A DNA stretch of 19,824 nt from a virus. Its lineage: Duplodnaviria > Heunggongvirae > Uroviricota > Caudoviricetes. Positions 3,647 through 14,274 of this stretch are shown here, piece by piece. A model generated the notes under the pieces. It was not told the origin of the DNA. It saw only the letters and a program-made list of their open reading frames with translations, and did no database searches. Position 1 is the first letter of the stretch; each line of letters begins with the position of its first letter. The position numbers were made by a program, and so were the translations under genes. The DNA is taken from the IMG/VR virus record IMGVR_UViG_2585427788_000002, one strand, 5' to 3'.

Positions 3647-3783
3647 AATCTTAACTACAATATGATTCATTTTGATGATTGTTTCATAAGGAACAGTGAA
3701 GTAAGATCTAAGAGGAGTTAAATTTTATACAGTATAATCATAATATTGCAGCAAGGTGGTTATAATTGAAAGAATATTTAGAT

Positions 3784-5241
3784 ATGAATACATCTCATGT
3801 AAGAGTTGTTACTCATATGTGTGGGTTCCTGGTTTGGCTCTATAGTCTTTCAATGTTGCCACCAATGGTTGTAGCATTGTTTTATAAAGAAAAAAGCCTG
3901 TTCGTTTTCTTTATAACTTTCGTTATATTTTTTTGCATTGGTGGCGGAGCGTGGTATACAACTAAGAAATCTGGCATTCAATTACGTACCCGTGATGGGT
4001 TTATTATAATTGTAATGTTTTGGATTTTGTTTTCTGTTATTAGTGCATTCCCTTTATGGATTGACTCAGAACTTAATTTAACGTTCATTGATGCTCTGTT
4101 TGAAGGGGTTTCTGGAATAACAACAACAGGAGCAACTGTAATTGATGATGTTAGTTCATTACCTCGGGCATATTTGTACTATCGGTCACAGTTAAATTTT
4201 ATAGGTGGTTTAGGAGTTATTGTTCTGGCGGTTGCTGTATTGCCATTATTGGGTATTGGTGGTGCAAAGCTTTATCAGTCAGAAATGCCGGGGCCATTTA
4301 AGGATGACAAACTCACTCCCCGCCTGGCCGATACGTCACGGACACTGTGGATAACTTATTCTTTATTAGGTATTGCTTGTATTGTCTGTTATAGACTTGC
4401 AGGAATGCCTTTGTTTGATGCTATTTGTCACGGGATTTCCACAGTTTCGCTTGGTGGTTTCTCAACTCATAGCGAGAGTATCGGATATTTTAATAACTAT
4501 TTGGTTGAGCTGGTGGCTGGTTCTTTTTCCCTGCTATCGGCTTTCAACTTCACTCTTTGGTATATTGTTATTAGCAGGAAAACGATAAAACCTTTAATCA
4601 GAGATATTGAACTTCGTTTCTTTCTGTTAATAGCCTTAGGGGTGATCATTGTTACCTCTTTCCAGGTCTGGCATATAGGTATGTATGACTTGCATGGAAG
4701 TTTTATTCATTCGTTTTTTCTTGCCAGCTCCATGCTCACTGATAATGGTTTAGCTACGCAGGATTATGCAAGTTGGCCCACGCACACGATAGTGTTTTTG
4801 CTGTTGTCAAGTTTCTTTGGGGGATGTATAGGTTCAACTTGTGGTGGAATTAAGTCACTTCGATTTCTTATACTTTTCAAACAAAGCAAACACGAGATAA
4901 ATCAGCTTTCTCATCCCAGAGCGTTGTTGAGTGTAAATGTAGGAGGGAAGATAGTTACAGATCGTGTAATGAGGTCTGTATGGAGTTTCTTTTTTCTTTA
5001 TACTCTCTTCACGGTGTTTTTTATACTGGTGTTAAATGGTATGGGATATGATTTTCTTACATCATTTGCAACAGTGGCTGCATGTATTAATAATATGGGA
5101 TTAGGTTTTGGGGCTACTGCATCGTCATTCGGAGTGCTTAATGACATTGCAAAATGTTTAATGTGCATAGCTATGATTCTTGGTCGCCTTGAAATTTATC
5201 CTGTTATTATATTGTTTTCAGGTTTTTTTTGGCGCTCCTAA
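3784..5241 (+). CDS. trkG: TrkG, Trk-system K+ uptake membrane protein (Rac-prophage moron)
   Basis: Translation matches E. coli TrkG (from memory) along its length: multi-pass membrane protein with TrkH-family motifs. The gene is far more AT-rich than flanking phage DNA. Start placed at ATG 3784 (MNTSHVRVV...) rather than the upstream TTG at 3766. Confidence 0.9.
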   Translation: MNTSHVRVVTHMCGFLVWLYSLSMLPPMVVALFYKEKSLFVFFITFVIFFCIGGGAWYTTKKSGIQLRTRDGFIIIVMFWILFSVISAFPLWIDSELNLTFIDALFEGVSGITTTGATVIDDVSSLPRAYLYYRSQLNFIGGLGVIVLAVAVLPLLGIGGAKLYQSEMPGPFKDDKLTPRLADTSRTLWITYSLLGIACIVCYRLAGMPLFDAICHGISTVSLGGFSTHSESIGYFNNYLVELVAGSFSLLSAFNFTLWYIVISRKTIKPLIRDIELRFFLLIALGVIIVTSFQVWHIGMYDLHGSFIHSFFLASSMLTDNGLATQDYASWPTHTIVFLLLSSFFGGCIGSTCGGIKSLRFLILFKQSKHEINQLSHPRALLSVNVGGKIVTDRVMRSVWSFFFLYTLFTVFFILVLNGMGYDFLTSFATVAACINNMGLGFGATASSFGVLNDIAKCLMCIAMILGRLEIYPVIILFSGFFWRS

Positions 5242-5327
5242 TATATGGCTGATTTATAATTGTGAGTTTAATATTATGTTGACTCACTCATTGATCCAAT
5301 ACCTAACTTTACCAGCAACCCCTCCGT

Positions 5328-5359
5328 CCCCAGTAGCACTGGCTGCTGGGGTGCGTTTT
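5328..5359 (+). terminator. Rho-independent terminator downstream of trkG
   Basis: 10-bp stem CCCCAGTAGC/GCTGCTGGGG (one G-U pair) with ACTG loop (5328-5351), then TGCGTTTTATT. Confidence 0.5.
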
Positions 5360-5378
5360 ATTCATAAAGCAAGGCTGT

Positions 5379-6170
5379 ATGAGCGAGAAATTAAAGATAG
5401 TCTATCGCCCATTACAAGAATTGTCACCGTATGCGCACAACGCCAGGACGCACAGCCCTGAGCAGGTGGCACAACTGGTAGAAAGTATTAAGCAATTCGG
5501 CTGGACTAATCCGGTGCTGATTGACGAAAAGGGCGAAATTATTGCGGGTCACGGTCGTGTTATGGCGGCTGAAATGCTCAAAATGGATTCTGTTCCGGTC
5601 ATTGTTCTGTCTGGCCTGACGGATGAGCAGAAAAAGGCGTACCGCCTGGCAGATAATCGCCTGCCGATGAATGCTGGCTGGGATGAAGATCTGTTGCGGA
5701 TGGAGCTGTCGGACCTAATCAATGCTGATTTTGATGTCTCCCTGACAGGCTTCATCCCGACAGAAATTGATGAACTGTTGACGGATGTTTTGCCCGGTAC
5801 AGGAAATGAGGAGGAGCCGTATACGACGAAAATTGATACGCCTGTTTATGAGCCGTCGGGCGGTAAACCGGATATCAGTGAACTGTACGACGATACGAAA
5901 ACTCAGGAGCTGATCAGCCGGATACGTTCGGCGTCCCTTGAGCCTGATATTGAGAAATTCCTCCTGTGTGCGGCAGAACGTCACACGGTGTTTAATTTCA
6001 GCAGAATTGCGGACTATTACGCTCACGCCCCCTCTGAAATTCAGTGTTTTTTCGAGGAGTCGGCGCTGGTGATCATTGATTATCAGCAGGCTATTGAAAA
6101 TGGATTTGTCCGGATGACGCAGCGCATGGTGGAGATCATGCATGGTGGTGAGGAGGAGGAATATGCGTGA
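5379..6170 (+). CDS. ParB-like nuclease (ParB/Srx) domain protein
   Basis: The N-terminal ~110 aa (KIVYRPLQELSPYAHNARTHSPEQV...GEIIAGHGRVMAAEMLKMDSVPVIVL...RLADNRLPMNAGWDEDLL) has the ParB N-terminal domain signature seen at the N-terminus of many phage ParB-methyltransferase fusions. The C-terminal ~130 aa is unrecognised and ends in an acidic tail GGEEEEYA. Confidence 0.75.
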   Translation: MSEKLKIVYRPLQELSPYAHNARTHSPEQVAQLVESIKQFGWTNPVLIDEKGEIIAGHGRVMAAEMLKMDSVPVIVLSGLTDEQKKAYRLADNRLPMNAGWDEDLLRMELSDLINADFDVSLTGFIPTEIDELLTDVLPGTGNEEEPYTTKIDTPVYEPSGGKPDISELYDDTKTQELISRIRSASLEPDIEKFLLCAAERHTVFNFSRIADYYAHAPSEIQCFFEESALVIIDYQQAIENGFVRMTQRMVEIMHGGEEEEYA

Positions 6171-7095
6171 TGATTTTTGCGCCTTTATTCTGACTCACGG
6201 GCGACCGGACAAAGTTCTGACTTACCGGACGTTGCGTCGTGCTGGCTATACCGGGAAAATTTTTATCGTTGTTGATGATGAAGATAAGACACGAAATCAG
6301 TACATGGCTGAATTTGGTGAACAGGTGCTGGTGTTTTCCAAAGCCGATATCGCCAGTCGTTTTGACGAAGCCGATAATTTCTGTGACCGCCGCTCAATTT
6401 TTTACGCCCGTAATGCCTGTTTCGACCTGGCAAAACTGGTCGGGTGTAAATACTTCATTCAGCTCGATGATGATTATCACGAGTTCCAGTTTCGGGTGGA
6501 TCGCAACTATGACCAGGCCTATTTTCCGATAAGGAAACTGGATGCGATCCTTTCTGAAATGCTGGCGTACTACGAATCAATACCTGCTCTTTCCATCGCT
6601 ATGTCGCAGGGCGGGGATTTTCTTGGTGACAATGGCGGCCATGCTTCGTGGGTGAAACGCAAGGCAATGAACAGCTTTATCTGTTCGGTTGATCGACCGT
6701 TCTCATTCATGGGGCGCATTAACGAGGATGTGAATACGTACACGAATCTCGGTCGCTGTGGTGAATTGTTTATGACGATCGGTGCTGTCCAGTTAGGGCA
6801 GAAACAGACGCAGAAAAACAGCGGCGGAATGACCGAGCTGTATCTGGATTCCGGAACCTACGTTAAAAGTTTTTACTCCGTCATGTATGCGCCGTCGTGC
6901 GTAAAAATCTCACTGATGGGTGCCAGCCATAAACGCATTCACCATCAGGTCACCTGGAACAACGCTGCAGTAAAAATCCTTCACGAAAAATACAGGAAGA
7001 AGACACCCTGCATATCAATGGGGGTGACAAATGATTCCGTATTCGAAAGTCGAGTCTCTGGCAGCGTGCCGGATGACTGCACAACAAATCGCTGA
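6163..7095 (+). CDS. Hypothetical protein with DxD-type motifs (possible GT-A-like nucleotide-sugar transferase fold), translationally coupled to the ParB-like gene
   Basis: ATG 6163 about 6 nt after AGGAGG (6151-6156), overlapping the ParB-like stop. Contains IFIVVDDEDK and FIQLDDDYHE acidic motifs spaced as in GT-A folds; no methyltransferase motifs seen. The fold assignment is a guess. Confidence 0.5.
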   Translation: MRDDFCAFILTHGRPDKVLTYRTLRRAGYTGKIFIVVDDEDKTRNQYMAEFGEQVLVFSKADIASRFDEADNFCDRRSIFYARNACFDLAKLVGCKYFIQLDDDYHEFQFRVDRNYDQAYFPIRKLDAILSEMLAYYESIPALSIAMSQGGDFLGDNGGHASWVKRKAMNSFICSVDRPFSFMGRINEDVNTYTNLGRCGELFMTIGAVQLGQKQTQKNSGGMTELYLDSGTYVKSFYSVMYAPSCVKISLMGASHKRIHHQVTWNNAAVKILHEKYRKKTPCISMGVTNDSVFESRVSGSVPDDCTTNR

Positions 7096-7282
7096 CGTTC
7101 TGGATGTTGATCTGAACCGACTGAAAGAAAATCGGGAAGCAATGACAGATTTTTATGCGGCCATCCGTAAGGGCAGAGCGAAAGGTGAAGCCGAGTTACG
7201 AGCGGCATTGTTTAAGCTTGCCAGAAAAGGGGATGCCTTTGCTCTGCGCGAACTACTCAGGGTGGATAAAAATCAGGACTAA
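7031..7282 (+). CDS. Small hypothetical protein with HTH-like segment (MTAQQIADVLDVD); start uncertain (7031 or 7073)
   Basis: 83-aa ORF just upstream of terS; possible DNA-binding or packaging accessory protein; no confident family match by eye. Confidence 0.4.
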   Translation: MIPYSKVESLAACRMTAQQIADVLDVDLNRLKENREAMTDFYAAIRKGRAKGEAELRAALFKLARKGDAFALRELLRVDKNQD

Positions 7283-7285
7283 CTG

Positions 7286-8380
7286 ATGAGCAGACCGGAC
7301 TGGGGGGCGTTGCAGCAGGAGTATATTGCTGAATACACCCGCTCCGGTATATCTCCGGTGGCATGGTGTGAAGCAAGGGGACTGAATTACGCAACAGCCC
7401 GTCGTTACATCAAAAAAACTCCGAAAAATGCGCAGACAGAAATGTGCAAAACTGCGCAAAAAAGTGCGCAGAAAAAATCTGCGCAGACTGCACAAAAGCG
7501 GAACGAAAAATCTCAGGAAAAAAAGCCAGTATTCGATGCGGGCCTGAATGAGGGCGACGCGGAGGAATTTTCGTTCTGTCCCGATGAATTCGGCATTTCT
7601 GACCAGCAGGCTAAGTTTGCGATGCTTGTTGCTCAGGGTAAAAAGCCGACAGAGGCGTACCGACTAGCCGGTTATGAGGGGCAAGGTGCGACAGCTAACA
7701 GCAACGCCAGTCGTATGCTTAGAAATGCCAGGGTTTTTCGCGCTATCAGCTACTTCCGCAATCAGTACCAGAAACGCTATACCGCAGACCTGGATTTACT
7801 AGTGAGTCAGTTGATGGCTATTGTCCTGGCCGACCCCAATCAGCTTGCACAATTTCGCCGTGTTAACTGCCGTTATTGCTGGGGCGAGAATCATCTCTAC
7901 CAGTGGCGCGATATAGCAGAATTCGACAAGGCAGCGGCGCAGGCTTCCAGAGATGGCAAACCCGAACCGGAATATGGAGGCCTCGGCTTTGTTGATAACG
8001 CCATACCCAATCCGGACTGCCCGAAGTGCTGCGGTGAGGGAACGGGACAGCTTTATATGGCTGATACCACTCTGCTTGATGGGGATGCGCGGCAATTATA
8101 TGCAGGGGCAAAATTCGGAAAATTCGGCGTTGAGATCCTGCTGGAGGATAAGGCTGCCGCCCGGCGTGAATTGTTGCGTTTGTTTTCTGCTGGCGGGGCT
8201 TTATGTGCAGATAAACGGCTACAGGAACTGGAAATTGAACGGCGCAGAATGGAAAACCAGAAGCTGCGCAAAGAGATCGAAACGGTGGAAGATAATGAAC
8301 ATCCCCAGCCTGTGGCGATCAATATTAATGTGGTTGATGCCAGAGTAAGGAGTGATGAAGATGATCTCTCCGACGCTTAA
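7286..8380 (+). CDS. Terminase small subunit (TerS), with N-terminal HTH, low-complexity linker and C-terminal Cys cluster
   Basis: N-terminal HTH (GISPVAWCEARGLNYATARRYI); central region FAMLVAQGKKPTEAYRLAGYEGQGATANSNASRMLRNARV typical of small-terminase domains; sits immediately upstream of the large terminase. Confidence 0.75.
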   Translation: MSRPDWGALQQEYIAEYTRSGISPVAWCEARGLNYATARRYIKKTPKNAQTEMCKTAQKSAQKKSAQTAQKRNEKSQEKKPVFDAGLNEGDAEEFSFCPDEFGISDQQAKFAMLVAQGKKPTEAYRLAGYEGQGATANSNASRMLRNARVFRAISYFRNQYQKRYTADLDLLVSQLMAIVLADPNQLAQFRRVNCRYCWGENHLYQWRDIAEFDKAAAQASRDGKPEPEYGGLGFVDNAIPNPDCPKCCGEGTGQLYMADTTLLDGDARQLYAGAKFGKFGVEILLEDKAAARRELLRLFSAGGALCADKRLQELEIERRRMENQKLRKEIETVEDNEHPQPVAININVVDARVRSDEDDLSDA

Positions 8381-9662
8381 TGTGCCTCAGGCGCGATTTC
8401 TTTCAATGCCCCATAAATTTAAAGCCTATATTGCTGGTTTTGGCTCGGGCAAAACATGGGTTGGGTGTGGCGGCATATGCAAGGGGATTTGGGAGCATCC
8501 AGGTATAAATCAGGGATATTTTGCGCCAACGTATCCCCAAATTCGCGATATTTTTTACCCTACAGTGGAAGAAGTTGCTGCTGACTGGGGATTGAACGTA
8601 AAAATTAATGAGGGAAATAAAGAGGTTCACTTTTATTACGGACGCCAGTATCGGGGAACCACTATCTGCAGATCGATGGAGAAGCCACAAACGATCGTCG
8701 ATTTCAAAATTGGTAATGCGTTGGTGGATGAACTGGACATTTTGCCGAAGGAAAAAGCCAGAACGGCGTGGCGCAAGATAATTGCACGTATGCGTTATAA
8801 GATTGATGGACTTCGCAACGGTATTGACGTTACAACCACGCCGGAAGGATTCAAATTTGTCTACGAGCAGTTTGTTAAAGCCGTGCGTGAAAAAACAGAG
8901 CTGGCCTCACTGTATGGTCTGGTGCAGGCATCTACTTTCGATAATGAAAAGAACCTGCCAGCAGATTACATTCCTTCGCTTCTTGAATCATACCCTCCAG
9001 AGCTGATTAAAGCCTATCTTCGAGGACAGTTTACTAACCTGACAAGTGGTACTGTTTACCATCAGTTTGACCGGAAACTGAATAATTGCGAAGAAGTGGA
9101 GCAGCCAGGGGAGCCGATTTATATTGGGATGGATTTTAACGTTGGAAAGATGGCGGGAATCGTCCATGTGCTGCGTTTGGGGCTTCCATGTGCGGTAACT
9201 GAAATCATCAATGCCTACGATACGCCGGATATGATCCGCATCATTAAAGAACGCTTCTGGCTGTATGATGGGAATGATTACCGGAAAGTGAGGGAAATTT
9301 ATATTTATCCAGATGCTTCCGGGGATTCCAGAAAATCAAGTAACGCAAGTACGACGGATATAGCCCAGCTTAAGCAGGCTGGTTTTAACGTTGTGGTGAA
9401 CAGCTCGAACCCGCCAGTAAAAGATCGCGTTAACTCAATGAATGCAATGTTCTGCAATGCCAATGGTGAGCGTCGCTATAAAGTTAATGTGAAGCGTTGC
9501 CCGTTATATGCCGAATCTCTGGAGCAACAGGTCTGGGATGAGAAGGGGGAGCCTGATAAAAAATCTGGCAATGATCACCCGAATGATGCCGGAGGTTATT
9601 TCATCGTTAAGCAATTCCCTATTGTCAAACCGACCGGAAGAGTCACATCACTTCGGATTTAA
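8361..9662 (+). CDS. Terminase large subunit (TerL), ATPase plus nuclease
   Basis: Walker A AGFGSGKT near the N-terminus; C-terminal RNaseH-like nuclease region (YPDASGD); RBS AAGGAG (8347-8352) before ATG 8361. Alternative starts GTG 8352 and ATG 8355. Confidence 0.9.
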   Translation: MISPTLNVPQARFLSMPHKFKAYIAGFGSGKTWVGCGGICKGIWEHPGINQGYFAPTYPQIRDIFYPTVEEVAADWGLNVKINEGNKEVHFYYGRQYRGTTICRSMEKPQTIVDFKIGNALVDELDILPKEKARTAWRKIIARMRYKIDGLRNGIDVTTTPEGFKFVYEQFVKAVREKTELASLYGLVQASTFDNEKNLPADYIPSLLESYPPELIKAYLRGQFTNLTSGTVYHQFDRKLNNCEEVEQPGEPIYIGMDFNVGKMAGIVHVLRLGLPCAVTEIINAYDTPDMIRIIKERFWLYDGNDYRKVREIYIYPDASGDSRKSSNASTTDIAQLKQAGFNVVVNSSNPPVKDRVNSMNAMFCNANGERRYKVNVKRCPLYAESLEQQVWDEKGEPDKKSGNDHPNDAGGYFIVKQFPIVKPTGRVTSLRI

Positions 9663-9664
9663 TT

Positions 9665-11071
9665 ATGGCTGATATATCAACACCCAACCTCGACTATAAC
9701 GATATGCTGGAGGCGTGGGATATTAACGACGCACTGATGGGCGGTACGCTTGAAATGCGCAGGCAGGGGGAAAATTATCTCCCAAAATGGCCTAACGAAG
9801 ATGAAGACGCTTATAAAAAACGCCTGTCTGTGGCTACGCTACTTCCTGTGTATGAAGAAAGCATCAAGCAAAATATTGGGCGCATATTTGCAGAGCCGAC
9901 AGTATTGAGTGAGGAAACGCCGGCAAAAATCAGGGAATATGCAGAAAATATCGACATGGAGGGGAGCCGACTGGATGTGTGGGCGCAGCAATTTTTCAGC
10001 CTCGCATTTCAGTATGGTGTGGCACATGCGCTGGTGGACTATCCACGAACGGATATGAAAGAGATTCGTACAAAAGCCGATGAAAACGCGACCGGTGGTC
10101 GTCCGTACGTTACGATGCTGAATCCACGCCAGGTTATTGGATGGAAATCGAAAGTTGAAAAAGGGAAAGTTGTTCTCACTGATTTGCGTATAAAAGAGGT
10201 CATCATTATTGATGGTGATGATTTCGGGCAGAAGAAGGTGGAGCAGATCCGCCATATTATGCCCCGTCGAGTTGAAATTTATCGACGTAGCGAAGGCACT
10301 AATGGCGAATCTGTCTGGACGCTTCATGAGTCATGGAATACCAGCCGTGATGATATTCCTCTGGTAACACTGTACACGAAGAAAACAGGATTTATGCGTG
10401 GTACACCGCCATTGCTTAATCTTGGCTTGCTGAATATCAAGCACTGGCAAAGCCAGAGCGAGCAGGACAATATTCTTTATGTTACCCGCGTTCCATTGCT
10501 GGTGGCCTACGGGCTGGACAGGAATGAAGAACTGACGGTTGGTGCATCCACCGCTACGATTTTTGAGGACAGAACAAAAAATGGCCTCGAATATGTTGAA
10601 CATAGTGGCGCAGCGATAGAATCTGGCGAAACATCACTTGAGAAGCTGGAAAATCAGATGCGTCATGCCGGCGCTAAACTTCTGCGTGCTGAAAATACAT
10701 CCACCAAATCTGTTGATCAGACTAATGAAGAGCGAATGCAGGAAAACTCGCCGCTTTATACAATGGCGAACTCCCTCGAAGATGCCCTCGATAATATTCT
10801 CCAGATAATGGCGGAATGGATCGGAGAGAGTTGCGGTGGCAATGTGGATGTGCGCACTGAACTGGATGTATCTGCCCAGGTGTTTGACTCATCCTCCGCG
10901 CTGGCTGTTCAGTCATTGCGTCAGGGCGGTGATATACGTCAGATTGATGCGGTTCGGGTGTTGCAGGCGTTGAAATTTATCGATCAGGATTCCCGTCCAG
11001 AGGAAGTGATCGATGAATTAAAAAATCAGAGTGTAATGCTGATGGAAATCAATGATGCAAACCGTGAATGA
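9665..11071 (+). CDS. Portal protein (probable)
   Basis: 468-aa ORF starting 3 nt after the TerL stop and followed by an SPP1 gp7-like head-morphogenesis gene, which is the canonical position. Family not confirmed by motif. Confidence 0.7.
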   Translation: MADISTPNLDYNDMLEAWDINDALMGGTLEMRRQGENYLPKWPNEDEDAYKKRLSVATLLPVYEESIKQNIGRIFAEPTVLSEETPAKIREYAENIDMEGSRLDVWAQQFFSLAFQYGVAHALVDYPRTDMKEIRTKADENATGGRPYVTMLNPRQVIGWKSKVEKGKVVLTDLRIKEVIIIDGDDFGQKKVEQIRHIMPRRVEIYRRSEGTNGESVWTLHESWNTSRDDIPLVTLYTKKTGFMRGTPPLLNLGLLNIKHWQSQSEQDNILYVTRVPLLVAYGLDRNEELTVGASTATIFEDRTKNGLEYVEHSGAAIESGETSLEKLENQMRHAGAKLLRAENTSTKSVDQTNEERMQENSPLYTMANSLEDALDNILQIMAEWIGESCGGNVDVRTELDVSAQVFDSSSALAVQSLRQGGDIRQIDAVRVLQALKFIDQDSRPEEVIDELKNQSVMLMEINDANRE

Positions 11072-12167
11072 ACGGCTGCGTGATGAATCAATTGCTCATG
11101 CAGTCTGGATATCCCGCTATAGCACTGGCGTGGCTGCCAGAATGGTGAAAATACTGAATGACAGCGATGCGGAACTTACTGCTCGCCTGCTGATAGCACT
11201 GGACAGCCTCGATCCAGGTAATTTTACCGTTAAGCGCCTGGAGTCACTTCTGGCGAGCGTCAGAAAGGTTAACCGCACTGCTATTAACAGCATGTTTACC
11301 AGTCTCTCCGGAGAGCTGAACGAGCTGGCAATTTATGAGGCTGGTTATCAGTTAAGTCTGTTTGATTCTATGCTACCTGATTTTGTTGCTGATGTTCACC
11401 CTCTGGTTGGTATCTCTCCTGATGCACTTTATGCCGCTGCAATGGCGCGACCATTCCAGGGACGACTGCTCAGTGAGTGGGCCTCAGATCTTGAGGCGGA
11501 TCGGCTCAGACGCATAACAAATACAGTGCGTCAGGGTTTTTTGCTGGGGGATACCAATGAGCAGATCGCAAGAAAAATTCGGGGACATGTCAGTAAGGGA
11601 TTTCAGGATGGTGCATTGCAGATGAGCCGGGCTAATGCGGCCAGCATTGCAAAAACAGCGGTTGGACATCTTGCTGCTACTGCCCGTGAGAGTTTTGCCA
11701 GCGCGAATAATGATTTGATTAAGGGTAAGCAATGGTTATCAACGCTTGATAATCGTACTACGCCACAATGTCGAATCAGGGATCGCCTCAAATATACGCT
11801 GAATAATAAACCTGTAGGTCACAGCGTGCCTTATTTGCAGGGGCCGGGAAAAATTCATTTCTGCTGCCGCTCAACGGAAACGTTCATTCTGAAATCAGCG
11901 AAGGAACTGGGTATTGATGTTCGCGATATTTCCCCGGCTGAGCGGGCCAGCATGGATGGCGTGGTGGCCGGAGATACAACCTACAGGGAATGGTTTTTGC
12001 GTCAGCCTTACACCAGACAAAAACAGATTGTGGGGGAAACCCGAGCAAAGCTGATTCGGGATGGTGGTATGTCGCCAGATGAATTTTACACCGATAAAGG
12101 CGAATGGCTGACGCTGAAGCAGCTCCGTGAGCGTGATGCACAGGTATTCAGAAAAGCAGGGATTTAA
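11052..12167 (+). CDS. Head morphogenesis / minor capsid protein (SPP1 gp7 / Mu F-like)
   Basis: 371-aa ORF overlapping the portal 3' end by 20 nt; position and size fit gp7/F-like proteins. Assignment by context and general resemblance. Confidence 0.65.
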   Translation: MMQTVNERLRDESIAHAVWISRYSTGVAARMVKILNDSDAELTARLLIALDSLDPGNFTVKRLESLLASVRKVNRTAINSMFTSLSGELNELAIYEAGYQLSLFDSMLPDFVADVHPLVGISPDALYAAAMARPFQGRLLSEWASDLEADRLRRITNTVRQGFLLGDTNEQIARKIRGHVSKGFQDGALQMSRANAASIAKTAVGHLAATARESFASANNDLIKGKQWLSTLDNRTTPQCRIRDRLKYTLNNKPVGHSVPYLQGPGKIHFCCRSTETFILKSAKELGIDVRDISPAERASMDGVVAGDTTYREWFLRQPYTRQKQIVGETRAKLIRDGGMSPDEFYTDKGEWLTLKQLRERDAQVFRKAGI

Positions 12168-12187
12168 ATAAATCATTTATTACAACA

Positions 12188-12211
12188 GGCTACCTTCGGG
12201 TGGCCTTTTTT
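12188..12211 (+). terminator. Rho-independent terminator after the head-morphogenesis gene
   Basis: 7-bp stem GGCTACC/GGTGGCC (one G-U pair) with TTCG tetraloop, followed by TTTTTTATT. Confidence 0.6.
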
Positions 12212-12271
12212 ATTGCTGCGATCCGGATGGTGAGCAGCGTAACTGTCGGAAGACTTAAACCAGGTACTAAT

Positions 12272-13036
12272 ATGAAACTGAAAACGGTCGAGATTAACGG
12301 AAAACAATACGCAGAAATTGATACTGCTGGCCTGCCAGTTTATGTGCACGACGATGGTAAAGAAATTGGCTTCGATGCACCGCTGGCGACAAAAAAAATT
12401 ACAGAGCTTAATGGCGAGGCAAAAAATCATCGCCTGGCTAAAGAAGCTGCAGAGGAAAAACTGGCTAAGTTTGCCGCTATCGAAGACCCGAAGAAGGCGA
12501 TCGAGGCACTGGAAATGCTGTCAAAAATCGACCAGAAAAAGCTGCTCGATGCGGGACAGGTTGACCAGGTTAAGGCAGAAATTACGAAAAATTTTCAGCA
12601 GCAATTAGATGAAGAAAAGCAACGCTCTCAGATGCTGGAGAAGCAGCTTTACGATTCTATGATTGGCGGTAGTTTTGCGGGTTCAAAATATATTGCCGAT
12701 AAAATTGCGATCCCGGCAGATTTATTACAAGCCCGCTTCGGGCAGGCATTCAAAGTGGAAGAAGGGAGGATCGTTGCTTATGACGCTTCCGGCAACAAAA
12801 TTTATTCCCGCGCGAAGCCTGGCGAACTGGCGCAGTTTGATGAGGCGCTGGAGTTCCTTGTCGAAAATTACCCTCAGAAAGACTACATCCTGAAAGCCAG
12901 TGGCAACAATGGCGGCGGCTCCCGTCCGACACAGCATGATATTGGTCAGAAAACGATGAAACGCTCTGCTTTTGATGCACTGGATGTTGCAGGTAAGCAA
13001 AACGCATTGAAAGACGGTATCACAATCGTTGATTAA
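12272..13036 (+). CDS. Capsid scaffolding protein (probable)
   Basis: Highly charged, helical, Lys/Glu/Ala-rich protein immediately upstream of the major capsid gene. Start chosen at ATG 12272 (MKLKTVEINGKQY) because the longer ORF start at 12200 lies inside the terminator. Confidence 0.55.
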   Translation: MKLKTVEINGKQYAEIDTAGLPVYVHDDGKEIGFDAPLATKKITELNGEAKNHRLAKEAAEEKLAKFAAIEDPKKAIEALEMLSKIDQKKLLDAGQVDQVKAEITKNFQQQLDEEKQRSQMLEKQLYDSMIGGSFAGSKYIADKIAIPADLLQARFGQAFKVEEGRIVAYDASGNKIYSRAKPGELAQFDEALEFLVENYPQKDYILKASGNNGGGSRPTQHDIGQKTMKRSAFDALDVAGKQNALKDGITIVD

Positions 13037-13134
13037 CACATTTGTCAGCTTCCGGATGGGAGCTGGTGTCAGGGCTGGATAGCTCATTACTCCATCTATT
13101 CACAATTACGCAAATTTTTAAGGAATATTTAATT

Positions 13135-14274
13135 ATGGCTGGAAATACCCTGACCGGGTTGATCCCGACTATTTATACCGCCCTGGATGTTGTATCCCGT
13201 GAGCAGGTAGGTTTTATCCCTGCGGTAGCAAAAAACGCAAAAGCTGACGCCGCAGCAAAAGATCAGACGGTAACCGCGCCAGTTGCGCCTGAGGCGAAAA
13301 CCGAAGATATCGTACCGGGGCCGTCAGCTCCGAATACCGGTGATCAAAATATTGGCACTGTTGATGTAAAAATTACTAAATCCAAAATGGCACCGGTTAA
13401 ATGGAATGGTGAAGAACAACTGGCTCTTGGCCCTTCAGGGACTTACAACACCATTCTGGCTGATCAGTTCAAGCAGGCTTTTCGCGCCCTTGCAAACGAG
13501 GTTGAGGCTGATCTTGGTGCGTTGTATTTCGGTGCTTCCCGCGCCGTGGGAACCGCAGGGACAACGCCGTTTGGTGTTAAAGATGATCTTTCTGATGCTG
13601 CTCTGGCTCGTCAGGTTCTGGAGGATAACGGCGCACCGACAACCGATCTGCAGATGGTGCTTGGCTCCACTGCCATTGCTAATTTGCGCGGAAAACAGTC
13701 TGTATTGTTTAAAGTGAATGAATCCGGCACTGAACAGCTACTGCGTGAGGGCGTGTTGGGGTGTCTGGAGGGATTCAATATTCACAGTTCGGCAGGTGTG
13801 AAACGAGCGCCAAAGGTTGCTGCAACTGGTTATCTCGTGAATGGAGAGAAAAAAGAAGGCGATGTTCTTATTTCCATTGATACTGGTTCGGGGAGTATTT
13901 CTGCAGGTCAGATTGTTACGTTCGCTGGTGATCCGAATCAGTATGTTGTGGCAGCAGCGACCAGCAATCTGATTACTCTTGCAGCGCCCGGACTGCGTCA
14001 GGATCTGGCCGATGATACTGCCATCACAGTTGTTGGGGCCTTTACGGCAAATATGGCGTTTGATCGCAACGCGTTTCTGCTGGCATCCCGTACTCCGGCA
14101 ATGCCGGAAGGTGGCGATAATGCTGATGATGTAATGAATGTTACGGACCCGATTTCAGGGATTACGTTCCAGATTGCACTGTATCGTCAGTATCGCCAGG
14201 TGCGCTATGAAGTTGGACTGGCATGGGGTGTTTCATCAGTGAAGCCGGCACATGGTTGTCTGATTCTTGGTTAA
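13135..14274 (+). CDS. Major capsid protein
   Basis: About 380 aa, starting at ATG 13135 after RBS AAGGA (13120-13124); follows the scaffold gene and is followed by a strong terminator. Confidence 0.75.
   Translation: MAGNTLTGLIPTIYTALDVVSREQVGFIPAVAKNAKADAAAKDQTVTAPVAPEAKTEDIVPGPSAPNTGDQNIGTVDVKITKSKMAPVKWNGEEQLALGPSGTYNTILADQFKQAFRALANEVEADLGALYFGASRAVGTAGTTPFGVKDDLSDAALARQVLEDNGAPTTDLQMVLGSTAIANLRGKQSVLFKVNESGTEQLLREGVLGCLEGFNIHSSAGVKRAPKVAATGYLVNGEKKEGDVLISIDTGSGSISAGQIVTFAGDPNQYVVAAATSNLITLAAPGLRQDLADDTAITVVGAFTANMAFDRNAFLLASRTPAMPEGGDNADDVMNVTDPISGITFQIALYRQYRQVRYEVGLAWGVSSVKPAHGCLILG

Follow-up and report, generated by a model that had tools for sequence, protein, structure and literature searches.

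The closest described relatives of the gene pair considered here are the TAGT GT-A glycosyltransferases (GTs) of the phage TET/5mYOX pathways (PF20691; Burke 2021, Pyle 2024). The pair, gene A and gene B, occupies positions 5379–7095 of the IMG/VR record IMGVR_UViG_2585427788_000002, a stretch of 19,824 nucleotides (nt) referred to below as the window and identified as the late region of a Rac-like lambdoid Escherichia coli prophage. Gene A encodes a protein with an N-terminal ParB/Srx domain, and gene B encodes a predicted GT. Based on a computational analysis of the two genes and their homologues, we suggest, tentatively and at a little less than an even chance, that they may constitute a two-component, late-acting DNA glycosyltransferase.

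The phage TET/5mYOX-associated enzymes share with B the family, the GT-A fold and the R/DDD/ED motifs, and they are likewise phage-encoded and often found near ParB-like and terminase genes. Unlike them, the pair in the window has no 5mYOX/TET, C5-methyltransferase or hydroxymethylase gene with it and includes an obligate small partner. The TAGT family is said to have been defined by Iyer et al. in 2013. The kinetoplastid base-J glucosyltransferase (JGT) belongs to the same superfamily and has the same catalytic motifs as B, but it glucosylates 5-hydroxymethyluracil (5hmU) made by JBP1/2, and no thymine hydroxylase is present here. The mammalian GREB1, with its O-GlcNAc transferase domain, is a further member of the superfamily; it is a multidomain protein of 1949 amino acids (aa) acting on the estrogen receptor ER-alpha, and it shows only that protein acceptors can be used by the family.

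For gene A, the nearest precedent is the 5mYOX176/ParB176 system (PMC13229309), in which a ParB protein consisting of a nucleoside triphosphate (NTP)-binding N-domain, a linker and a C-domain, with no DNA-binding domain, is needed for enzyme activity on double-stranded DNA (dsDNA). The gene A product shows this architecture, with a putatively NTP-binding N-domain, a C-domain, no DNA-binding domain and a gene placed beside that of the enzyme. It differs from ParB176 in that its cognate enzyme is a GT rather than a dioxygenase and that its C-domain also occurs without ParB. The second precedent is provided by the ParB_N–DNA methyltransferase fusions, whose N-domain is homologous to that of A. 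In these proteins the effector is a fused S-adenosylmethionine (SAM) methyltransferase, whereas here it is a separate GT, presumably reached through a dedicated adaptor domain.

Published surveys have recorded GT-A genes in the vicinity of ParB-like and terminase genes, and have set aside about 65% of GT contigs, those without 5mYOX or ThyS. A GT partner is not mentioned in the surveys of the ParB fold. The families of both domains and the RefSeq names of both proteins are known already. In the literature consulted, we found no description of the obligate pairing of this GT subfamily, across domains of life, with one specific unannotated partner module, nor of the optional ParB_N fusion of that module, nor of the consistent absence of a hydroxymethylase, although Iyer et al. 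2013 may mention ParB–TAGT neighbourhoods; nothing relevant was found on DNA modification in HHTV-2, Lactobacillus delbrueckii phages or ynaK.

Gene B and its linkage to gene A

Gene B (6163–7095, + strand, 310 aa) matched Pfam PF20691 TAGT over profile positions 4–205 of 205 with 121 bits (E 8.4e-35; cut-off 27.5 bits) and phrog_842 at 1.2e-103. The names given to it in RefSeq and UniRef are 'GREB1-related protein' and 'TAGT domain-containing protein'. In a preliminary description, made from the sequence without database searches, the protein had been called 311 aa long (a count that includes the stop codon) and unrecognisable apart from two acidic motifs, VVDDED and LDDDYHE, spaced as in GT-A nucleotide-sugar transferases. 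Both motifs and the suspected GT-A kinship are confirmed, and the protein is far from unrecognisable, being a clear member of PF20691. A GT-A fold with a single Rossmann-like domain was recognised, and the motifs correspond to D38–D41 (6274–6285) and D102–D104 (6466–6474), both conserved. The other catalytic motifs are R14 (6202–6204) and N187-E-D189 (6721–6729, + strand).

In an alignment of 51 sequences from many phyla (39–79% identity, median 50%), 62 positions of B were at least 90% conserved. The conserved residues include R14, D38/D41, D102-D103-D104-Y105, R166-K167, N187-E188-D189 and the G231-T-Y-V-K-S-F-Y238 block; R14, D102–D104 and E188-D189 are each conserved in at least 94% of the sequences. 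The order R...DDD...ED is the active-site signature of phage DNA GT-A enzymes and JGT (bioRxiv 10.1101/2023.12.21.572611). After ED, B has V190 instead of Y/F, with Y193 further on. Judged from its sequence, the mildly basic gene B product is predicted to be an intact enzyme of the Mn2+/DxD-type GT-A class, in the TAGT/JGT/GREB1 family. Only the E. coli/Rac version carries a C-terminal extension of 22 aa (7027–7092, + strand), which is probably a read-through tail; homologues end at about 285–290 aa.

The gene directly 5′ of the GT was inspected at 61 loci taken from one-genome-per-species bacterial and archaeal assemblies, which include Bacteroides, Veillonella, Clostridia, Ignavibacteria, Verrucomicrobia, Spirochaetes and Methanosphaera. 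Upstream sequence was sufficient at 51 of these loci, and at 50 of them the gene adjoining the GT on its 5′ side encodes the C-terminal module of A. This figure includes loci among the seven checked by a six-frame hidden Markov model (HMM) search; the sole exception is a degenerate locus. The longest open reading frames (ORFs) of the partner and the GT overlap or abut in 37 of 44 pairs. In the window, where an overlap of the two genes had been described, the frames overlap by 8 nt (ATGCGTGA). At this coupling junction (6149–6170, + strand), a strong Shine–Dalgarno run, GGAGGAGGAGG (6149–6159), stands 5′ of the likely ATG of B (6163–6165), which is followed by the TGA of A (6168–6170).

The same pairing was found in isolated viruses, namely L. 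delbrueckii phage c5, Nocardia phage NTR1, the haloarchaeal virus HHTV-2 and Vibrio phage pv27; a Porphyromonas phage also has the pair, with a GT only 27.5% identical. Among 80 viral contigs, A, B, the small gene orf83 and the gene for the small terminase subunit (TerS) occur together at every intact locus on a contig of sufficient length. This block remains intact down to 72% GT identity, with the large terminase subunit (TerL) and portal genes exchanged, and B is among its best-conserved proteins. The functional pairing of the two genes, already proposed in the preliminary description, is supported. B has an enzymatic fold, and linkage of the pair in homologues is strict; neither a non-enzymatic fold nor a loss of linkage between homologues was seen.

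The GT subfamily comprises 1483 clusters at 50% identity and ranges over Enterobacteria, Bacteroides, Veillonella, Clostridia, Verrucomicrobia, Actinobacteria and haloarchaeal viruses. The GTs of such different hosts are 39–79% identical, which suggests a universal acceptor. Of 5426 complete E. coli genomes, 1580 contain a match, and in 889 of these the pair is complete.

Some GT homologues are fused to other domains: a C-terminal SAM methyltransferase or sulfotransferase, a Walker-A-like (kinase-like) N-terminus or a second GT (P0248, P0252, P0276, P0286, P0264, P0295, P0301 and P0261). Such fusions suggest that other phages make tailored products or products with several sugars. Three loci (L120, L115 and L150) have two TAGT-family genes per partner gene, arranged as partner–GT–GT or GT–partner–GT, and cytidylyltransferase-like genes lie 3′ of the pair at several loci. 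No convincing natural fusion of the partner with the GT was found; two candidates, P0081 and P0221, resemble chimeras that arose by frameshift or deletion.

It might be supposed from these fusions that the substrate of the pair is a free nucleotide, a signal derived from a nucleotide or some other metabolite, so that a host defence would be blunted, for instance, or precursor pools changed. The relatives with a P-loop kinase-like N-terminus, SAM methyltransferase or sulfotransferase, the cytidylyltransferase-like or NTP_transf genes that adjoin the pair at some loci and the position of pairs among genes of nucleotide and DNA metabolism would all agree with it. However, sugar tailoring or donor synthesis would explain the fusions and neighbours equally well, a ParB-fold domain and a dedicated protein partner would be unusual for such an enzyme, and neither A nor B matches a defence or anti-defence model. 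We therefore regard a small-molecule acceptor as quite unlikely.

The two parts of gene A

Gene A (5379–6170, + strand, 263 aa) is an ORF that matched phrog_620 over residues 1–250 (E 8.5e-91); according to RefSeq annotation, it is the intact form of K-12 ynaK. The product has an isoelectric point (pI) of 4.5 and a net charge of about −25. Residues 1–135 (5379–5783, + strand) form a ParB/Srx-fold N-domain with a helix–helix extension, which was recognised by both sequence and fold. Residues 10–144 are much closer to the N-domains of ParB–methyltransferase fusions than to partition ParBs and matched PADLOC MTase_II (2.2e-38) and phrog_498 (1.2e-50), so that the domain is of the methyltransferase-fused kind, as first described. 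A total of 293 phage records matched this ParB_N domain at E <1e-15, and many of those listed are annotated as methylases. The identity to the N-domains of phage proteins is 35–57%, many of the listed ones being annotated as DNA methyltransferases.

The P-motif of A is G57-H58-G59-R60, the equivalent of the GERR box, and N93 and D102 are conserved. The phosphate-binding arginine (R60) is kept in 30 of 38 partners and N93 in 39 of 40; the hydrolytic glutamate of the GERR box is replaced by histidine or asparagine in the partners, with histidine in gene A. Judging by these residues, NTP binding by the domain is plausible, and NTP hydrolysis is doubtful.

Deposited phage records annotate A as a 'chromosome (plasmid) partitioning protein', which would make it a ParB for the segregation of a plasmid or prophage. 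This identity is extremely improbable. The score against TIGR00180 was 38.5 bits, under the cut-off of 58.45; no helix-turn-helix family matched A; the phage has no ParA gene, and the prophage integrates via an integrase; and the catalytic glutamate of the GERR box is the histidine mentioned above. Identities as a partition ParB and as a defence system were dropped because the defining features were not found and no defence model matched.

Residues 136–263 had no match in Pfam, NCBIfam, PADLOC or PDB, and in the first three of these collections no methyltransferase family matched them. The preliminary view of this part as an unrelated C-terminal region with an acidic tail and without methyltransferase motifs is therefore upheld. 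It consists of a linear motif, Y148-T-x-K-I-x-x-P155-x-Y157-x-P159...L169-Y-D..K174 (5820–5899, + strand), which follows an acidic disordered linker, and of a helical C-terminal domain with an acidic tail (5901–6167, + strand). The conserved unit of the partners is made up of the helical domain, which measures about 90 aa, the acidic tail and the motif, whose consensus is Y-[TS]-x-K-[IV]-x-x-P-x-Y-x-P. Across 42 partners from many phyla (alignment A5), Y148, P155 and Y157 are invariant, and so are R201, A211, Y214, E226 and D234 in the C-domain; G242 is nearly so, and residue 149 varies between T, S and A.

The constant companion of the GT is this C-terminal module and not the ParB domain. At seven genome loci the partner is a ParB-less protein of 130–145 aa, and the linear motif is also present in stand-alone partners of about 130 aa. 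A profile search for the module gave 979 proteins; among the best 120 matches, nearly all are stand-alone, mostly about 130 aa long and without a Pfam domain. The ParB domain is therefore dispensable to the partner. The converse was also seen, since ParB_N proteins without a neighbouring GT, for example the pOW20-A methyltransferase, Javan511 gp34 and R20L gp1, also lack the C-module. The module is hence specific to the GT.

Such a conserved, hydroxyl-rich motif in a co-inherited protein may be compared with the case of glycogenin, which primes itself on a tyrosine. The main rival to a DNA acceptor is that B glycosylates a protein. The most economical acceptor would then be the partner A itself, at Y148, T149 or Y157, and another phage or host protein may be considered. 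Several facts favour this explanation: Y148 and Y157 do not vary in the 42 sequences, the acceptor would have to be universal across phyla as the co-inherited partner is, the hydroxymethyl base that is missing at these loci would not be needed, and GREB1 of the same superfamily O-GlcNAcylates ER-alpha (PMC7968844). On the other hand, invariant motif residues are equally expected of a binding interface, T149 is not invariant, no context of virion-protein glycosylation was seen, the genomic context is consistently one of DNA replication, modification or packaging, and the ParB_N module is also found in DNA methyltransferases. A protein acceptor is accordingly held to be somewhat unlikely.

Many E. 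coli records contain chimeric ORFs in which the first ~160 residues of A are joined to fragments of Lom, tail-fibre or terminase proteins (P0197, P0234, P0193, P0199, P0231 and P0206). Together with K-12 ynaK, they show that deletions starting inside gene A recur in decaying Rac prophages. The preliminary description mentioned only short remnants of the pair in the Rac prophage of K-12; what persists there is the first 254 nt of gene A (ynaK), and gene B is wholly deleted.

Genomic slots, acceptor and proposed mechanism

The ParB_N-fused pair heads the packaging operon, and the one or two genes that follow it encode TerS and TerL; phage c5 has it as the first feature past the cos site. The TerL proteins behind it belong to at least five Pfam TerL families. 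In Psychrobacter phage pOW20-A, the one phage checked, a ParB_N–methyltransferase fusion occupies the same late-operon slot, between Q and the terminase. The position just upstream of the terminase, reported earlier for the window, is conserved across phyla, with the correction that an ORF of 83 aa stands between B and TerS. Pairs without ParB_N sit in replication modules, as seen in five contigs and in pv27. In three of the five contigs the pair is directly 3′ of DNA polymerase A, and in two of them it adjoins N6_N4 methyltransferases; primase, DnaB, RecA and beta-clamp genes are nearby. Because of these ParB-less pairs, the term 'packaging-linked' applies only to the ParB-fused form. The preliminary interpretation is thus supported in part; the partner proper is the C-module.

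The preliminary description had offered a nuclease accessory for the terminase as the alternative. In this explanation, the ParB-like protein would be a nuclease or a pac-site factor aiding the terminase, and the GT would be a passenger. ParB_N proteins of A's clade are indeed found directly 5′ of the terminase where neither a GT nor a methyltransferase is present, for instance in Vibrio phage R20L and Streptococcus phage Javan511, and some ParB-fold proteins are annotated as nucleases. Nevertheless, the part of A conserved with B is the C-module rather than ParB_N, many pairs have no ParB_N and are not located at the terminase, the TerL families that follow the pair are unrelated, and B is one of the best-conserved proteins of its block. 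The explanation is poorly supported, and we consider it very unlikely.

Returning to the proposed DNA glycosyltransferase, the following scheme may be suggested. B would transfer a sugar from a nucleotide-sugar donor by means of its GT-A domain. The YTxK..PxY motif and the helical domain of A would serve as an obligate adaptor or activator, which would bind B in a physical complex and activate or target it. The fused ParB/Srx domain would load the enzyme onto phage DNA that has been replicated and is about to be packaged, in a way similar to that in which ParB homologues without a DNA-binding domain activate phage 5mYOX enzymes, the thymine dioxygenases, on dsDNA (PMC13229309). The scheme is supported by this precedent, by the occurrence of the same domain in phage DNA methyltransferases and by the replication context of the ParB-less pairs. 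The most likely product would be sugar-modified phage DNA protected from nucleases in the next host, which would give the pair an anti-restriction purpose.

The main difficulty of this scheme is the acceptor. When the early region of the whole Rac-like phage was searched, no TET/JBP (5mYOX) enzyme, hydroxymethylase of the thymidylate-synthase-like kind or C5-methyltransferase came to light. These enzymes were likewise not found in the complete 31.8-kb genome of phage c5, in the two genes that precede the partner at 46 loci or within ±10 kb of the pair in five metagenomic contigs. In phage c5, there is no unannotated ORF above 208 aa, and a scan of the eight largest unassigned ORFs gave no relevant match. 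To our knowledge, all characterised DNA-acting relatives of B glycosylate a hydroxymethyl group, and we know of no DNA glycosyltransferase acting on canonical bases. Furthermore, no DNA-binding domain was found in A, which is a very acidic protein, the confidence of the predicted structures is low for the C-terminal half of the GT and for the C-domain of the partner, and GREB1 provides the precedent of a protein acceptor described above. All these points weigh against the scheme.

The lack of an accompanying TET/5mYOX or hydroxymethylase means that 5-hydroxymethylcytosine (5hmC) or 5hmU made by the phage cannot serve as the acceptor, and the GT subfamily is 'TET-associated' in name only in the places searched. 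As no hydroxymethyl group is made, the acceptor would be an atom of canonical DNA, which implies new chemistry, or not DNA. For the same reason, DNA modification is plausible but unproven. The narrower proposal, that the pair attaches a sugar directly to a canonical base or another atom of DNA without prior hydroxymethylation, is unlikely in our estimation. If true, it would represent a new class of post-replicative DNA glycosylation in viruses of many bacterial phyla and archaea, delivered in some of these viruses by a ParB-fold loader just ahead of packaging. Once identified, the acceptor would bring to light either a novel DNA modification, with a bearing on restriction evasion, phage therapy and tools for sequencing or epigenetics, or a new system by which phages glycosylate proteins. 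Its identification would also add to the recent evidence that DNA-modifying enzymes are served by proteins of the ParB fold. E. coli K-12, which has lost the pair, allows direct testing.

Surroundings of the pair in the window

The window begins with an IS3-family element (14–1242), consisting of an HTH_Tnp_1 ORF and an rve integrase-core ORF. It occupies the site of the Q antiterminator and tRNA genes in related phages. Because the element stands where Q sits, normal late-gene activation may have been lost in this prophage copy. Two ORFs with a TolA C-terminal domain follow (1217–1675, E 2.7e-23, and 1826–2221, E 1.3e-14), directly 5′ of the holin gene; they are prophage-borne, TolA-like morons. 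The holin, lysozyme and Rz genes lie between them and trkG (3766–5241), a potassium-transporter moron whose GC content of 0.39 is markedly below that of the flanks. A strong terminator-like hairpin was found at 5328–5351, between trkG and gene A, and no promoter-like site was found in the region ahead of gene A. The A–B pair thus lies within the late operon, 3′ of the lysis genes and behind the trkG terminator.

Downstream of B, orf83 (7031–7282, + strand) encodes a small basic protein of 83 aa that matched an internal, TerS-like segment of the TerS family phrog_309 (E 8.3e-23). The lineage-specific tail of gene B covers the first 21 codons of orf83 in another frame; at other loci, orf83 homologues begin after the GT stop. 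The gene accompanies the A–B–TerS block in enterobacterial phages. Of the 80 viral loci, nearly all have it next to the GT, and it is missing only at contig ends or degraded loci. TerS (7286–8380, + strand, 364 aa) and TerL (8352–9662, + strand) come next, with Pfam matches to Terminase_2, Terminase_6N and Terminase_6C for the two subunits, and the portal gene and head genes are located 3′ of TerL. A search of positions 5100–8500 for a parS- or pac-like repeat gave only short matches at chance level. Short tandem-like direct repeats are present at 7411–7487 near the N-terminus of TerS, where they code for a low-complexity stretch rich in lysine and glutamine (…KTAQKSAQKKSAQTAQK…).

Across 5379–7095, ten deposited phage records share at least 99.7% identity with the window. 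One of them, ON470595, is a whole phage with integrase, recET, racR, replication genes, Q and lysis genes. Between its replication genes and Q (10381–13971 of ON470595, L001) lie a kinase fragment, an AAA ATPase annotated as FtsH and an S8 peptidase of 738 aa, a cluster that looks like a defence-type moron.

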